The notes under the pieces are model-generated. The model was not told where the DNA came from. It worked only from the letters and a program-made list of their open reading frames with translations, and searched no databases. The translations under genes and the position numbers were made by a program. A stretch of DNA of 36,351 nucleotides from Escherichia coli (lineage in GTDB: Bacteria; Pseudomonadota; Gammaproteobacteria; Enterobacterales; Enterobacteriaceae), in the NCBI RefSeq assembly GCF_017348835.2, contig NZ_CP072313.1. The stretch is one strand, 5' to 3'. Below are positions 4,007-33,409 of this stretch, in pieces. Numbering within the stretch: position 1 is the stretch's first letter; each line of letters opens with the position of its first letter.

Positions 4007-4522
4007 TTACGCTCTGTTTTCCACGCGTTGCCACCCTGTCGCCCTGCGCTGTCCAGTCGTACCGTATTTTGCGCGGATTTCTTCTATCGTGTGTTCTTCA
4101 CGATTCCAGTAACGTTTATGTTCTTCTGGACGATAAAACCATTGTTTTTTCTTTGCCGCCCATTTACACCCGATTTCTTTTAAAGTTTCTTTATGTGTAA
4201 TGGTATCTCCACTAATCCAGACCCAGTTACCTATAACTTCAAATACCAGACCTGATAAACCAGAAAGAACGTTTAATACTTTTTCCAGGTCGTCACCGTA
4301 ATTATATCGAGAATGTTCATCAGTGCTCTGAAACTGATTAATTTTATCGATGTTAGCCATGAGAAAATCAAAAGCTGCATTTACCGCTTTCATCAGTTCA
4401 GCCCCTAAAGGATTACGATCTGGATGATATTTTAACGCAGCTTTTCTGTATGCTGCTTTGATATCTTTTTCGGTTAATTCACCGGATAACCCAAAAACAT
4501 TTAACGCTTCCTGGATATTCAT
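4007..4522 (-). CDS. J-domain (DnaJ-like) protein, 171 aa, first gene downstream of module A3 promoter
   Basis: N-terminal J-domain with the invariant HPD motif (AAYRKAALKYHPDRNP); C-terminal part unrecognised. Confidence 0.7.
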   Translation of the reverse strand: MNIQEALNVFGLSGELTEKDIKAAYRKAALKYHPDRNPLGAELMKAVNAAFDFLMANIDKINQFQSTDEHSRYNYGDDLEKVLNVLSGLSGLVFEVIGNWVWISGDTITHKETLKEIGCKWAAKKKQWFYRPEEHKRYWNREEHTIEEIRAKYGTTGQRRATGWQRVENRA

Positions 4523-27390: not shown

Positions 27391-29553
27391 ATGAAACTTT
27401 TTATTGCAGAAAAACCCGCAGTAGCAAATGATATTGTTAAGGCTCTTGGGGGCAATTTCACCCGTCATGATGGCTGGTTTGAAAGTGATAATGCCATTGT
27501 GACTAACTGCTTTGGTCATATTATCGAATCACAGCCACCGGAAAACTATAATCCTGATTACAAAGCCTGGAAAGTTGAAACACTCCCTTTACGTCTTTAC
27601 CCCGTCAAATATCAGCCAGTAGAAAGTGCCGCAAAGCAGGTTAACACAATTCTTGAGCTTATCAGACGTGGAGACGTGACTGAAATTGTTCATGCTGGCG
27701 ACCCTGATGAAGAAGGTCAGCTACTTGTTGATGAAGTTCTGGAATATGCGGGGAACACAAAACCCGTTAAGCGCGTTCTGATTAACGACAACACGCTTCC
27801 GGCAGTGAAAAAGGCACTGGCAAATCTTAAAGATAATCGTGATTTCAAAGGGCTTTACCTTAAGGCGCTGGCGCGTTCAGTTGCTGATGCCGTCTATGGC
27901 TTCTCTATGACGCGTGCTTACACAATCCCGGCAAAAACTAAAGGCTATAAAGGTGTTTTGTCTGTCGGACGGGTCCAGACACCCGTGCTTGGCCTGATTG
28001 TGAATCGTACCCGCGCTAACCAGAACCATAAATCCAGTTTTTACTACACCATGACCGGAGTCTTTCAGCGTGGTGCTGATGTTATCAGGGCGAACTGGAA
28101 GCCAGGGGAATTTGCTCCGCTGACAGACCGTAAATTACTTGATAAAGCGTGGGCAGACGGAACGGCAGCATCCCTTGCAGGAAAACCGGCTACAGTTGAA
28201 GCGGCAGCAACTGATGATAAAAAAACGGCTGCGCCGTTGCCGTTTAACCTGGTCAGACTCCAGCAATACATGAACAAGAAGTTCAAAATGACGGCACAAA
28301 AAACGCTGGATATTACGCAACAACTACGCGAAAAATATAAAGCAATTACTTATAACCGCTCTGATTGCTCATATCTTTCTGATGAACAATTCAGCGAAGC
28401 GCCGCAGGTTATCGATGCCCTGAAATCAGTCTTTCCTCAGTCGCTGGATATTGATTCTGCACGTAAAAGCAAAGCGTTTAACAGTGCAAAGGTGACTGCG
28501 CATACTGCGATAATCCCGACCGCCAGTGTGCCTGATGTTAACGCACTCAGCACCGACGAGCGCAATGTTTACCTGGCGATCGCACAACACTATCTTGTTC
28601 AGTTCATGCCTGAAAAAGCATACCAGGAAGTATCGGTTGCCATTCAGTGTGGTGATGAGTCGTTCTATGCCCGTGCCAGAAAAACAACTGACAGCGGATT
28701 TGAGGCGTTTCTTGGCGCGGAAACCACAGACGAAGGTGAATCAGAAGATAATGATGATTCCGCTTTTGAACAGCTTTGCAAAATTCGCACTGGTGAAACA
28801 CTGACAACAAAAGAAGTTGTTGTTAATGAGAAGAAAACAACACCGCCGCCGTTATTCACCGAAGCCTCCTTGCTTGCTGCGCTTGTTCGTGTCGCGGATT
28901 TTGTCACTGATCCAGTGATTAAAAAATTACTGAAGGATAAGGATAAAGACAAAAAAGATGAACATGGCGGTATTGGTACGCCAGCTACACGCGCTGCCAT
29001 TCTGGAAGCGCTGAAGAAGAGAAATTATATCACGCTGGAAAAAGGGAAACTTATTCCGACGGATACCGGATGTGCGCTTATTGATGCCCTACCAGGTATA
29101 GCGGTTAATCCTGATATGACAGCATTATGGTCTGAAAAACAGTCTGCCATTGAAAATGGCGACCTGACGGTTGAACAGTTTATTAATGATCTGTACGGTG
29201 AACTGACAGGCATGATTTCTGATGTTGACCTGGGCGAAATGAAAATTGAACCCGCAGCGCCAGCCGGACAATCTCCACGCCTGAGTTCTCCCTGCCCTTC
29301 CTGTGGTAAAGCGATTATTATCAGACCAAAAGGTTATTTCTGTACAGGATGTGAATTTAAAATCTGGAAAAATTTTTCTGGTAAAGCATTATCCGATAAG
29401 CAAGTGGAAACACTTGTTACAAAAGGTATTACCGGAGAATTAAAAGGATTTGTTAGTTCAAAAACGAATAAGAATTTCTCGGCTAAGGTTAAACTTGTTG
29501 ATAAAACGGCCGGAAAGCTGGGATTTGAATTTACCCACAAAAAATCAATATAG
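27391..29553 (+). CDS. topB: DNA topoisomerase III (TopB)
   Basis: 720 aa; Toprim-type N-terminus MKLFIAEKP; C-terminal zinc-ribbon Cys pairs (CPSCGK...CTGCEFK). Confidence 0.9.
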   Translation: MKLFIAEKPAVANDIVKALGGNFTRHDGWFESDNAIVTNCFGHIIESQPPENYNPDYKAWKVETLPLRLYPVKYQPVESAAKQVNTILELIRRGDVTEIVHAGDPDEEGQLLVDEVLEYAGNTKPVKRVLINDNTLPAVKKALANLKDNRDFKGLYLKALARSVADAVYGFSMTRAYTIPAKTKGYKGVLSVGRVQTPVLGLIVNRTRANQNHKSSFYYTMTGVFQRGADVIRANWKPGEFAPLTDRKLLDKAWADGTAASLAGKPATVEAAATDDKKTAAPLPFNLVRLQQYMNKKFKMTAQKTLDITQQLREKYKAITYNRSDCSYLSDEQFSEAPQVIDALKSVFPQSLDIDSARKSKAFNSAKVTAHTAIIPTASVPDVNALSTDERNVYLAIAQHYLVQFMPEKAYQEVSVAIQCGDESFYARARKTTDSGFEAFLGAETTDEGESEDNDDSAFEQLCKIRTGETLTTKEVVVNEKKTTPPPLFTEASLLAALVRVADFVTDPVIKKLLKDKDKDKKDEHGGIGTPATRAAILEALKKRNYITLEKGKLIPTDTGCALIDALPGIAVNPDMTALWSEKQSAIENGDLTVEQFINDLYGELTGMISDVDLGEMKIEPAAPAGQSPRLSSPCPSCGKAIIIRPKGYFCTGCEFKIWKNFSGKALSDKQVETLVTKGITGELKGFVSSKTNKNFSAKVKLVDKTAGKLGFEFTHKKSI

Positions 29554-29684
29554 TATCTAATGACACGTCTGAAGTATCCGATTAACCAGGGGTGGTTTGT
29601 CGACTTTAGATTGTGCCATATATGGAGTTGTTAGAAGAAAAGGGACTTCCTCCGGTCGGAGCCACCAACTCAAGGCCGGAAAAC

Positions 29685-29716
29685 AAAAAAGCCCGATTAC
29701 CAGTCGGGCTTTTTTG
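29685..29716. terminator. bidirectional rho-independent terminator between convergent topB and relaxase genes
   Basis: AAAAAA-AGCCCGA-TTACCAG-TCGGGCT-TTTTTT; works on both strands. Confidence 0.6.
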
Positions 29717-29723
29717 TTTCTGA

Positions 29724-32700
29724 TTAACGGGACCGCGTGTTATCCCTGTTTCTTTCCCGTTCACGCTCATTTTTCAAAGCGTTGTCATAACTCACTATTT
29801 CACGCTTCACGGCCTCTACCGTTTCAGGTTTTTTCATTGCTGCCTTGAGATCGTTTACATCCTCAAAACGTATGAATTTGAGCGTATCTTTGACTGTTTG
29901 TTTGTCAATATTCATTTCCTTCGCCAGTTGCTTAGAAATTCGCTCAATTTCTCTTTCCATCGCTTTTTCACTATTGACAGTCCGCTTTTTCTTTTCTGTA
30001 GTATTCTCGTTTTTTTCCTCGACTGATTTAGCTTTTTTCTGCCCTTGTTGTTCCTCAAAGGCTTTAATCTGTTCATTAATCGTCTGAGCACGGGCCGAAA
30101 TACTGTTAACCCCTTTCGAAAGCAGATCAACCTCTTCTTTCGGCGCACCATTTTCTACAGCTTCATTCAGTAAACGCTGGGCTTCCTGGTGCTGGCTGGC
30201 AATAACTTTTGCCTCTTCCTGTAGCTGCTGTAGCGATGCGTTATTTTGCTGATGAGGATTTTCAGTGGCTAACGCGGATTTGCTTTGCTCATCTCCGGTC
30301 TGTTTATCCTGACCAGTAGTCACGTCTTTCTCTGTTACCGGCTTCTGTTGCTGCGCTTCTTGTGGCTGCTGCTCGCGTTCTTCAGAATGAGCCGAAACGT
30401 TCTGCTGCACAGACTCCTGTTTTTCCGCTTCCTGTACCACGGATGTTTCAGACGTGGATTTTTGAGAAACAGTTTCTGACTTAACAGGCTGTTCCGGCAC
30501 TGCATCACGCGATTTATCATCATTATGTACAGATTCCGCTACTTCGGGCGTTCTTTCCTTAGCCTGGGTGTCTTTCTCGACTGAATTAACCTGCTCTGCT
30601 CTCTTTTCCTGCTCCTGTTCTGGTTTCTGTCCGGCGACTTGTTGCTGACGCTCTGCCTCGACGCTGTTTTCATGTCCATGTTCAGCTTTCAGTTCCTGGA
30701 GGCGGACCTGCATCATTTCATGATATTTTTCAGGTCGCAGAATAACATTCATCCCCTTCTCGGCTGCCGCCATTGCACAGGCTACCTTAAATTCTTCCGA
30801 GCCATTGAGTTTCAGCATCCCACCAAATTTCTCTTTTGCATAAAGAAGGGCTGCTTCAGCTTTATCCTGGGTAATTTCACCATTTACACGAACATGATTT
30901 CCTTTATCAGTGAAAACAGTCTGTGTTGTCTTCGGATCAAGGTAACGCGTTTCTTTTGGGCTGACCTTATGAGGAACAAGATCGGTTAGTTCACGTTTTA
31001 CATAATCCTGAACTTGCTGGGATTGCTGTACTCGCTTAACTACGCTGAAAACTTCCTTTTCATTACCGGAAGAAATGCTGTTTCCATCAACCGGATTACG
31101 GATTATCTTTTTTAAAGAATCACCTAAAGCCATATCATATCTCCTGTCTGGATTCCAACGGTGATAGTATGAGTTTATTTCGCGAAAACATGCCTTTCGA
31201 ATTGAGTTTATTTCACTCTCTCTTTCCAGCTTTTTAAATATAATGTACCCTCTAGCAACCTCCCGTTCCTGCTTGTTTCTTATCGCCAGAAGCCCTCTGA
31301 GTTCTGCCCTGTAATTAGCTATATTATCATTATGCTTATATTTAATCTCATTATTTACCCAACCTTTATGTTCATTTAAACAAATAAATCTTTCTTTTGC
31401 CTGTTGACGCGTAAGATTTACACGGGTAATAACAGCATCAAAAGGTTTGTTATCTTTCTGATCCTGCCAGATATCAAGTAATACCTCTTTTGCCTCATCC
31501 CATTCAAGATTCAGATGTTTAGTTAAAAAATCACTGGCATTCATATTTCGATTGCCAACTCTGAAACGCGGAGATCCATCCTGTCCATAGGTGACAGTAT
31601 GCTTTGATGGATCTATGTTAAAGCGTGTTTGCAGATTGGACAAATAACGTTCAGCATTAATTTCTGTGCGAATTTGTTTCAAAAAAGGTAAATCATCACT
31701 GCGCTGAATCGCCGCTTTAATATTTGATTCAAGCGCTGACTGAACTACTCTTCTTCCTGCTCTATCCTGCAACCGTCGCACATATCGATCTGGATCGACT
31801 TTTTGTCGTCCAGCCGTTGATAAATAACCGTATTCATTTTGCTGCAATAACAACTGAGATTTATTAATGCTTTTCCCACCTGATCTTCCGTGAAGTCCGT
31901 AAACCAGTTTGCGTGCTGGCAGACGTGGCAATCCGATTGTCTTACCGGATACAAACTTTCCGGTATTGTATTTAATACCGGACTGGTCACTATTCTGTCG
32001 TCGGTCCTGTCTTTGAAGGTTGTGTTTTTCGTCATAACGATTAATTACCTTTTTCAGATACATTTGCTTATCTTCACCAGCAAGTGCTGCATATTCTTTA
32101 CGAATTTTTTGCCCTGCCGGATGAATATGTTTTATCTCATGACTGATCGAACTCTTCCAGTCTTTCAGATGACTCTCAATCTGCGTCTTTGTGGGTTTTA
32201 AAAGTGGTATAGTTCGATCAGAGATATACTGACGTGAAAATAAAGGGCTTTTGAGTCGAGTAAATTTAGAGTCTCCTTCGAGCTTCACACCAAAGTAGCG
32301 ATCAGACTTCCCCTTATTATACTCCTTTACCTCACCAAAACGGGAAAGATAATCAGAAAATTGTTTCTCTGTTCGGATATTCTCTGTATCCAGCGCATCA
32401 AAAACCGTGGTTTTAAACTCACTGTGCCGCTCACGGTAAAAATCGCCTTTAGCCCTGGATAATACATTAGCGTGGTTATGGTCACTGACTCTGACACCAT
32501 CTTTAGGAGAAACAAGATTGTATTTATTATTAATGTGCTCCTGTATGGCATCAAGATGTTTCAAATAATGGTTAATAACTCCCCCAGGATTTAGTTTATT
32601 TCCTGTCACCAGATTAACTTCAGGGATAACAATGTGAATGTGAGGCTTACGCTCAACCATTTCTCCTGTTTTATGATCAGGCATCTGTTTTATTTTTGGA

Positions 32701-33011
32701 AGATGCGCTTCCGCATAAAAATTATATTCATCTTCATGATAAGCGTTCATCATGAGAGACTTGTATTCCTGGACTACATCATGCAACTTTGATTCAGAAA
32801 CATCATCTTCAAAAAAGGATAACGTAATATGCATATAGCGCTCTTGACCATTATCAGGTATCGCGTCAATAACTGATTCAGTCAATGCCAGATCGCCATC
32901 CAGAACTAATCGATGGTCAATTTCATCTCGGGTATATTCCCTTCCTTGCTTATGACCTTTTTCAAGGTATTCGCATACCCCCTTATTGCCACCGCTGATT
33001 CTGACTAACAT
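29724..33011 (-). CDS. conjugative relaxase (TaxC/MOB-type) with long Q/E/K-rich C-terminal extension
   Basis: 1095 aa; histidine-triad motif HIHIVIPEVN in the N-terminal domain; adjacent to the accessory gene and putative oriT. Confidence 0.85.
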   Translation of the reverse strand: MLVRISGGNKGVCEYLEKGHKQGREYTRDEIDHRLVLDGDLALTESVIDAIPDNGQERYMHITLSFFEDDVSESKLHDVVQEYKSLMMNAYHEDEYNFYAEAHLPKIKQMPDHKTGEMVERKPHIHIVIPEVNLVTGNKLNPGGVINHYLKHLDAIQEHINNKYNLVSPKDGVRVSDHNHANVLSRAKGDFYRERHSEFKTTVFDALDTENIRTEKQFSDYLSRFGEVKEYNKGKSDRYFGVKLEGDSKFTRLKSPLFSRQYISDRTIPLLKPTKTQIESHLKDWKSSISHEIKHIHPAGQKIRKEYAALAGEDKQMYLKKVINRYDEKHNLQRQDRRQNSDQSGIKYNTGKFVSGKTIGLPRLPARKLVYGLHGRSGGKSINKSQLLLQQNEYGYLSTAGRQKVDPDRYVRRLQDRAGRRVVQSALESNIKAAIQRSDDLPFLKQIRTEINAERYLSNLQTRFNIDPSKHTVTYGQDGSPRFRVGNRNMNASDFLTKHLNLEWDEAKEVLLDIWQDQKDNKPFDAVITRVNLTRQQAKERFICLNEHKGWVNNEIKYKHNDNIANYRAELRGLLAIRNKQEREVARGYIIFKKLERESEINSIRKACFREINSYYHRWNPDRRYDMALGDSLKKIIRNPVDGNSISSGNEKEVFSVVKRVQQSQQVQDYVKRELTDLVPHKVSPKETRYLDPKTTQTVFTDKGNHVRVNGEITQDKAEAALLYAKEKFGGMLKLNGSEEFKVACAMAAAEKGMNVILRPEKYHEMMQVRLQELKAEHGHENSVEAERQQQVAGQKPEQEQEKRAEQVNSVEKDTQAKERTPEVAESVHNDDKSRDAVPEQPVKSETVSQKSTSETSVVQEAEKQESVQQNVSAHSEEREQQPQEAQQQKPVTEKDVTTGQDKQTGDEQSKSALATENPHQQNNASLQQLQEEAKVIASQHQEAQRLLNEAVENGAPKEEVDLLSKGVNSISARAQTINEQIKAFEEQQGQKKAKSVEEKNENTTEKKKRTVNSEKAMEREIERISKQLAKEMNIDKQTVKDTLKFIRFEDVNDLKAAMKKPETVEAVKREIVSYDNALKNERERERNRDNTRSR

Positions 33012-33409
33012 TTATTAATCCCTGCAACAAACGCATCACGAATATTAACAAGAACATTAAGATAGCGTAAATATGTACTTTCTGAAATAAAACCATTGCG
33101 ATATTCTGTGTTAATTTTTTTGGCTATCTGATTAATATTATTGCTTGACTTATTAAAAAGTCTGAGTAATTCTCTGTATTCAACTGGACGTTTTTGTTTC
33201 AAAGTCGGAATATCATCCAGACGATTCAGTATAACCATCCGAAAAAACTCACTACGACTGACTTCAAGAGATGTAAAATACTCATGAAATGACTGATATT
33301 CCTCATCAGTCAATCGCAGTGATATCACATGTTTTCTCTCCACCTTTGATGTGGAAGCTACAGCCTTTTTTCCTTTGTCTTGTTTTTTCATGGTTCGTAG
33401 AACCTCCAT
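33005..33409 (-). CDS. relaxosome accessory protein (TaxA-like, probable RHH DNA-binding)
   Basis: small basic protein immediately upstream of and overlapping the relaxase gene; start may be at ATG 33391. Confidence 0.6.
   Translation of the reverse strand: MEVLRTMKKQDKGKKAVASTSKVERKHVISLRLTDEEYQSFHEYFTSLEVSRSEFFRMVILNRLDDIPTLKQKRPVEYRELLRLFNKSSNNINQIAKKINTEYRNGFISESTYLRYLNVLVNIRDAFVAGINKC

Follow-up and report, generated by a model that had tools for sequence, protein, structure and literature searches.

Predicted disordered spacer and helical module in the C-terminal tail of a MOBP-type relaxase related to those of IncI2 and IncX4 plasmids

The recognition of relaxases by coupling proteins is poorly understood, and the signals known so far differ between systems. 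Here we analyse the C-terminal tail of the relaxase encoded at 29724-33011 (minus strand; 1095 amino acids plus the stop codon) in a 36,351-nucleotide stretch of Escherichia coli DNA (contig NZ_CP072313.1), hereafter the window. The closest described systems are the relaxases of IncX4 plasmids and those of IncI2 plasmids (NikB; pEC006 and the R721-type mcr-1 plasmids), the latter assigned to MOBP6 (PMC3394729). These are true homologues with the same domain order and the same end of the core, and their genes are likewise overlapped by a gene for a ribbon-helix-helix accessory protein. Membership in the relaxase family is already known, and so are C-terminal disordered regions of relaxases, for example residues 1630-1765 of R1 TraI (PMC6439144). 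This C-terminal domain of F/R1 TraI is thought to be disordered and has been proposed as an interaction platform for the initiation of transfer (PMC6439144). TraI differs from the window relaxase in being a MOBF relaxase-helicase without sequence relationship and in having internal mapped signals (PMC10025392), and the full-length window relaxase gave no sequence or fold match to the TraI TSA. The tail of the window relaxase, in contrast to that of TraI, has a confidently predicted helical module. Structure prediction divides this tail into a disordered acidic Q/E/S spacer (residues 780-922) and a helical module with an Arg-rich free C-terminus (residues 923-1095), an anatomy in which our confidence is much higher than in any function proposed for it.

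Composition and predicted structure of the tail

Residues 781-1095 of the relaxase comprise 46% Q+E+K+S and 17% hydrophobic residues, compared to 27-29% and about 30% in residues 1-780. Relative to the core's own frequency the enrichment of Q+E+K in the tail corresponds to z = 7.4, and the richest 150-residue segment of the tail, with 44% Q+E+K, ranks at the top of the 85 open reading frames (ORFs) of at least 80 amino acids in the window (runner-up 33%). The bias is compositional and not driven by repeats. Tandem Repeats Finder returned only a trivial 2-copy 15-mer and nothing meaningful from the DNA, no self-similarity was found within the linker (residues 780-922), and a repeat origin of the low complexity was rejected on these grounds. 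The dominance of Q, E, K and S that the original prediction had noted at the C-terminus is thus real as a contrast with the core, but the biased region is smaller, more structured and not uniformly of low complexity. Instead of 400 residues the tail comprises about 315 (nucleotides 29727-30674) and starts at about residue 780. The span 29724-31200 quoted for the extension corresponds to residues 604-1095 and so takes in the folded, family-conserved LPD7 domain (nucleotides 30708-30947). We place the boundary at about residue 780 because conservation in the family alignments is good through ...EKGMNVILRPEKYHEMM (about residue 767) and collapses after LPD7.

AlphaFold2 (AF2) was run on the full-length relaxase, with a 78-sequence alignment, and on the tail alone, and both runs gave the same picture. 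The acidic Q/E/S-rich linker at residues 780-922 (30246-30674, minus strand) is predicted to be intrinsically disordered, with a predicted local distance difference test score (pLDDT) of 25-35 and no secondary structure. The alignment is uniformly shallow over the tail, which only about 10 sequences cover; the low linker scores are nevertheless not simply an artefact of alignment depth, because the equally shallow C-terminal module scores about 90. Residues 781-922 carry a net charge of -14 (31 D/E versus 17 K/R), compared to +23 for the core (131 K/R versus 108 D/E), and residues 781-950 contain no aromatic and 13% hydrophobic residues. The mean hydropathy of residues 780-922 (0.314; boundary 0.448) is the second lowest of eight segments after a short K/E loop, where only the ranking of segments was used, since the whole relaxase is hydrophilic and the charge-hydropathy plot discriminates poorly.

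The linker is followed by a predicted antiparallel helical hairpin at residues 923-998 (30018-30245, minus strand), for which AF2 gives helices 920-953 and 958-998 with pLDDT of about 90. Heptad a/d positions in these two helices are 70-73% hydrophobic, compared to 17-21% elsewhere, and the hairpin superposes on generic helical hairpins with 1.2-1.7 Å over about 74 residues. A K/E-rich loop of low confidence (residues 994-1013; 29973-30032, minus strand; pLDDT below 50) then precedes a small C-terminal helical bundle at residues 1005-1091 (29739-29999, minus strand), with predicted helices 1005-1033, 1037-1046, 1052-1060 and 1062-1091 and pLDDT of 85-93. The loop contains an 11-residue insertion with respect to seven of eight sub-clade relatives (P0010 has a longer gap there), and is longer in the E. 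coli lineage of the window than among its relatives. The extreme C-terminus NERERERNRDNTRSR (residues 1081-1095; 29727-29771, minus strand) contains RxRxRxR and finishes with DNTRSR. Within the Arg-rich end RERERNRDNTRSR, RERERNR is followed later by RSR, and the last 20 residues have a net charge of +2. The disorder and the coiled-coil character ascribed to the whole extension thus belong to different parts of it. Based on the linker pLDDT and the hairpin heptads, 'disordered' fits residues 780-922 but not residues 923-1091, which are confidently helical (pLDDT 85-93), and 'coiled-coil' fits residues 920-998 but not the Q/E-rich stretch.

A conserved core and variable tails

The assignment of the 29724-33011 product to the MOBP-type relaxases, as kin of the IncI2 and IncX4 proteins, is supported by its homologues (more than 1000, including the IncX4 and IncI2 relaxases) and by its N-terminal HUH relaxase domain (residues 1-330; 32022-33011, minus strand). 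Pfam Relaxase (PF03432, MobA/VirD2) matches residues 54-166 below threshold, with 19.5 bits versus a cutoff of 24.6, but the cutoff is passed by the homologues P0059 (29.8 bits) and P0102 (31.4 bits), whose cores are 41-45% identical to that of the window relaxase. Y15, H103, H124 and H126 (PHIHIVIP) are unchanged in 78 of 78 aligned family sequences; we take Y15 to be the catalytic tyrosine and the three histidines to form the metal site of the relaxase. The N-terminal domain adopts a confident α/β fold in the AF2 model, while a Foldseek search with the whole 1095-residue model gave weak helical matches only and was uninformative. Two context features of MOBP-type systems are present as well, namely the adjoining ribbon-helix-helix gene and genes for a type IV secretion system (T4SS) and its coupling protein, as annotated in the near-identical plasmid NZ_LT985310. 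The invariant residues, the above-threshold Pfam matches of the homologues and the overlapping NikA/MobC-like gene support the original designation of the product as a relaxase.

The core of about 780 residues is ordered as HUH nuclease domain, disordered segment, helical middle region and LPD7. The internal segment at residues 335-437 (31701-32009, minus strand) is predicted to be disordered (AF2 pLDDT 30-41, almost no secondary structure) and aligns poorly across the family, with many gaps; this stretch, which links the nuclease domain to the middle region, is rich in R, G, S and Q. LPD7 (PF18821; residues 689-768; 30708-30947, minus strand; Pfam E = 2.8e-16, 59.7 bits versus a 27-bit cutoff) is part of the family-conserved core and not of the tail. 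In 117 of the best 120 homologues the LPD7 region ends at residue 761-822 of the homologue, and the tail that follows the core measures 128-566 residues in the full-length members of these 120. All full-length homologues examined keep a tail of at least about 130 residues. The IncX4 relaxase of CP051788 (1065 residues) and the IncI2 relaxase of the mcr-1 plasmid pEC006 (1437 residues, with a tail of 653) are 41-44% identical to the window relaxase over residues 1 to about 800; for IncI2 plasmid relaxases the identity is 40.6% over residues 1-811.

In nearly every member the core is immediately followed by an acidic stretch of low hydrophobicity, with a median length of 31 residues. Linker sequence and length are poorly conserved across the family. 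The IncI2 and IncX4 relaxases likewise have a Q/E-rich, low-hydrophobicity stretch at this position, which in IncI2 consists of ATEQ(A/E)Q repeats, whereas the window linker is non-repetitive and its lineage has the longest one in the sampled family. In pEC006 (L003, 4001-8314) these repeats occupy about 100 residues (residues 810-890) directly after the core. Numerous 'partial' database entries of the IncI2 relaxase (P0110-P0117, 755-809 residues) stop 26-28 residues into the tail; we rejected them as functional truncations, as they probably reflect assembly breaks at the IncI2 ATEQ repeats in short-read data. Judged from these comparisons, the Q/E-rich stretch behaves like a spacer of variable length.

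Beyond the linker, the tails fall into distinct groups. The last 110 residues of 110 full-length homologues cluster into seven classes, and hhalign found no relationship between the class of the window relaxase and four others (probability below 1%), the C-terminal modules of IncI2 and IncX4 among the unrelated ones. Pfam domains were absent from the tails of seven diverse members except for DUF5710 in one. A phmmer search with residues 925-1095 against 1.84 billion representatives returned two clusters only, its own and one from Salmonella, and a profile search with the module matched only fragments of the same relaxase gene. One of these fragments is a stand-alone 192-residue ORF from Arsenophonus, the last of three ORFs into which a relaxase gene has been split. 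Since all stand-alone hits came from broken or incomplete relaxase genes, no other protein was found to carry the module, and by sequence it appears confined to an Escherichia/Salmonella/Arsenophonus sub-clade. Searches of Pfam and of PDB profiles with the module returned noise only, and the full-length relaxase matched nothing among PDB sequences (E up to 1) except one designed protein. Taken together, profile and structure searches found generic hairpins and no specific sequence or fold match for the module.

Within the sub-clade, residues 915-1095 are 35-41% identical in seven relatives (Salmonella, Logan assemblies) and still alignable, at 20% identity, in the Arsenophonus sequence P0010. 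On the Arsenophonus contig (L008, 3649-6579) the relaxase is pseudogenised and broken into pieces of 51, 706 and 192 residues. The Salmonella relatives P0003 and P0006 carry a duplicated unit of about 100 residues (SPFEQKIKELE...GEMIT.AEI...EDGTY...; columns ~1150-1480 of alignment A1) inserted after the linker and ahead of the shared C-terminal module, which suggests that the linker region readily takes up additional domains. A 238-residue entry, P0121, begins at a GTG inside the linker. We rejected it as evidence of a separate product from an internal start, since its source contigs are short (longest 3.4 kb) and the gene may have been called on an incomplete copy.

The extreme C-terminus behaves differently from the rest of the tail. 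Among 90 distinct family tails, 66 have N or D at position -6, 40 have G at -4, 56 have S or E at -2 and 69 have R, M, L or H at -1. In 35 of these tails the end matches [DN].[GD].[SE][RMLHI] exactly, compared to 0.02 tails expected if the motif were as frequent there as at internal tail positions (7 of 28,902), and the motif is found in several classes that are otherwise unalignable. It is absent from all other ORFs of the window. The IncI2 and IncX4 C-termini are polar and acidic with related motifs (RDNSQDMH, QSEQER), whereas the window sub-clade ends in alternating Arg and Glu. These sequence patterns argue that the free C-terminus is constrained across unalignable tail classes.

The window relaxase gene is matched at 93-99.9% identity in 11 E. 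coli plasmids of 35-45 kb. We determined the ratio of nonsynonymous to synonymous substitution rates (dN/dS) between the window and four variant plasmids, with codon frames anchored on the window. With CP101957, the copy that diverges most, the ratio comes to 0.20 in the linker, 0.17 in the helical module and 0.15 in residues 301-780, the linker dN being about twice that of the core. The reading frame of the tail is kept in 10 of the 11 plasmids, and the sole indels among the variants are in-frame, a 6-nucleotide deletion inside the linker and a 3-nucleotide insertion at the boundary between linker and module. The comparison gave no sign of positive selection on the C-terminal module within the clade. 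Substitution patterns thus indicate that the tail is functional coding sequence under purifying selection. The copy on a goat Shiga toxin-producing E. coli plasmid (CP101957; L004, 501-3786) is pseudogenised by a frameshift that splits the relaxase into two coding sequences.

At the other end of the gene, dS of residues 1-300 (32112-33011, minus strand) versus three variant plasmids is 0.30, compared to 0-0.075 in the remaining gene; versus CP101957 it is 0.56 in the first 300 codons and 0.11-0.20 in the remainder. The oriT-specific nuclease domain seems to have been exchanged separately from the remaining protein, as a recombination mosaic.

Possible roles of the tail

We tentatively favour the reading that the tail consists of a flexible spacer and a C-terminal module whose role would be either docking on the coupling protein or providing a T4SS translocation signal. 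A recruitment or translocation-signal role, as suggested by the original prediction, is plausible. The signal, if any, would lie in the folded C-terminal module and the extreme C-terminus and not in the Q/E-rich stretch, because it is the terminus-anchored motif that recurs and the module that is under purifying selection. The module and the terminal peptide would dock the DNA-bound relaxase onto the VirD4-type coupling protein of the plasmid, which is the most likely partner of the module, and would together serve as a type IV secretion signal at the C-terminus, possibly a bipartite one. The predicted disordered spacer may allow the module to reach the coupling protein while the N-terminal domain holds the oriT DNA. 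Relaxases must unfold for translocation (PMC5826034), and the spacer could also supply a readily unfolded segment for threading.

Several described VirB/D4-type substrates resemble this arrangement in part. Arg-rich C-terminal signals are known from VirB/D4 substrates including MobA C48, and in the Agrobacterium substrates VirF, VirE2 and MobA C48 the C-terminus is unstructured with spaced arginines (PMC10025392). The window relaxase has RERERNR followed by RSR; its end is, however, only +2 in net charge, unlike the Agrobacterium signals, because the arginines alternate with glutamates, and most members of its family are neutral or acidic at the end. In Bartonella Beps and some alphaproteobacterial relaxases a BID domain of about 100 residues, likewise helical, is followed by a positively charged C-terminal tail (PMC10025392). 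The likeness to the window relaxase is on paper only, since neither fold nor profile of BID was found in the module. XVIPCD, a C-terminal domain of about 120 residues with a glutamine-rich region in Xanthomonas T4SS effectors, binds VirD4 (PMC10025392), but there the Gln-rich part follows the domain, whereas the Q/E-rich region of the window relaxase precedes the folded module, and no sequence or structure match between the two was found.

A number of observations weigh against a docking or secretion role. The translocation signals mapped in the conjugative relaxases MobA, TraI and TrwC are internal and not C-terminal (PMC10025392). The module lacks a sequence or fold match to BID, XVIPCD or the TraI TSA alike, and since it was found on no other protein, nothing points to a common signal among substrates. 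Positive charge at the C-terminus is not conserved, the last 20 residues of the 90 family tails usually carrying 0 to -3, and the terminal motif was defined post hoc on phylogenetically related sequences.

A broader version of this proposal, which we regard as unlikely, is that a fixed core, an expandable Q/E-rich spacer, interchangeable clade-specific adaptors and a common C-terminal peptide constitute a shared secretion-targeting design of the IncI2/IncX4-type MOBP relaxases. The VirD4-type coupling protein would then read the terminal peptide, roughly [DN]-x-G/D-x-[SE]-[RML]-COOH.

Oligomerisation is an alternative use of the module to which we give a similarly low standing. Here the heptad hairpin would drive a relaxase dimer or higher assembly with the disordered region as a tether, for instance to supply the termination reaction with another catalytic tyrosine or to assemble the relaxosome. 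This is compatible with a docking role, and is consistent with the strong a/d hydrophobic periodicity of helices 920-953 and 958-998 and with the best structural matches, which include homo-oligomeric hairpins (the Cep57 C-terminal domain, the designed proteins 5J0K/5J2L, the CheA dimerisation domain and prefoldin).

It is rather improbable that the variable module is instead a payload acting in the recipient, i.e. a clade-specific establishment or anti-defence domain with the Q/E-rich region as inter-domain linker. The relaxase enters the recipient together with the DNA, and following the logic of polyvalent proteins could carry such a domain along. Large polyvalent proteins have been described in conjugative elements (PMC5512222), and LPD7, which is present in the core, was named by Pfam for its association with them. 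The hypervariable length of the tails and their at least seven unrelated classes form a pattern typical of conflict-driven modules, and additional folded inserts occur in some relatives, for example the duplicated unit of P0003/P0006. Against this, neither a catalytic nor a known anti-defence signature was recognised in the module, the purifying selection on it within the clade is of the ordinary kind without sign of positive selection, and the terminal motif shared across classes would be left unexplained.

We consider it still less probable that the acidic linker is an intramolecular regulator, which folds onto the basic core as a DNA mimic or autoinhibitor and tunes nicking or single-stranded DNA binding until the relaxosome engages the secretion system. 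The charge asymmetry between linker (-14) and core (+23) and the occurrence of acidic linkers directly after the core across the family agree with this idea, but the argument is purely electrostatic and the linker is poorly conserved in sequence and length. A dispensable, near-neutral extension that arose by compositional drift tolerated at the gene end would account for the great variation of the linker and the lack of known domains in the tail, yet it is the least probable explanation, because the tail is under purifying selection (dN/dS of 0.17-0.20 in both parts, frame preserved), the module is conserved from the seven sub-clade relatives to Arsenophonus, the terminus-anchored motif recurs family-wide and no full-length homologue has lost the tail.

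Plasmid context and implications

NZ_LT985310, the only one of the 11 matching plasmids inspected in its entirety, has an annotated complete VirB-like T4SS (VirB3, B4, B9, B10, B11 and others) together with a coupling protein. In the window the type IV coupling protein is encoded at 21665-23716 (plus strand), and its counterpart in NZ_LT985310 carries the annotation 'conjugative DNA transfer family protein'. This protein is a candidate docking partner of the relaxase tail. It has a strongly acidic, D-rich C-terminal tail, NDFDDDKEYFPGDGGGD, with a charge opposite to that of the Arg-rich end of the relaxase, which is in line with the docking reading. The gene for the relaxosome accessory protein, a NikA/MobC-like ribbon-helix-helix protein (33005-33409, minus strand; Pfam NikA-like E = 1.2e-08), overlaps the start of the relaxase gene and also has a weak VirD1 match in NCBIfam. 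MOB-suite labelled all 11 plasmids as 'mobilizable' and gave inconsistent replicon types (IncI2, IncK2/Z, IncFIA or none). The label stands despite the T4SS genes in NZ_LT985310, probably because the mating-pair-formation type is merely not recognised by MOB-suite.

A type IA topoisomerase gene (27391-29553, plus strand) faces the 3' end of the relaxase gene. The gap of 170 nucleotides between the two stop codons contains a match to Rfam AgrB (RF02891) at 29631-29716 (plus strand; 61.9 bits, gathering score 40). AgrB acts as the antisense RNA in the type I toxin system of dinQ (Rfam RF02891), and no ORF for a DinQ-like hydrophobic peptide is evident in the gap. In related plasmids a dqlB toxin is annotated about 370-410 nucleotides downstream of the relaxase gene. 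The AgrB match may mark what is left of a toxin-antitoxin locus, or one that has been rearranged. A 171-residue ORF at 4007-4522 (minus strand) matches in length a NZ_LT985310 gene annotated as a J-domain protein and has an Arg-rich end, GQRRATGWQRVENRA; this J-domain-like protein could be a further candidate substrate of the T4SS.

Our literature search returned no description of the fixed-core/variable-tail architecture in the IncI2/IncX4-type family, of the helical module or of the recurring terminal motif. Papers dealing with the tails of the IncI2 or IncX4 relaxases were likewise not found, and LPD7 gave nothing relevant. For annotation the analysis has a direct use, as such relaxase genes now carry only the label 'LPD7 domain-containing protein'. 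If the tail were merely a spacer with a lineage-specific helical appendage, this would be an ordinary finding. Relaxases of this family are found on IncI2 and IncX4 plasmids, which spread mcr-1, and the shared design, if true, would represent a new class of T4SS signal in the relaxases of these clinically important plasmids. If the tail with its C-terminal motif is a docking signal, it would help to explain the compatibility of plasmids and transfer machines and would offer a defined, mutable target with which to study or block the transfer of mcr-1 plasmids.

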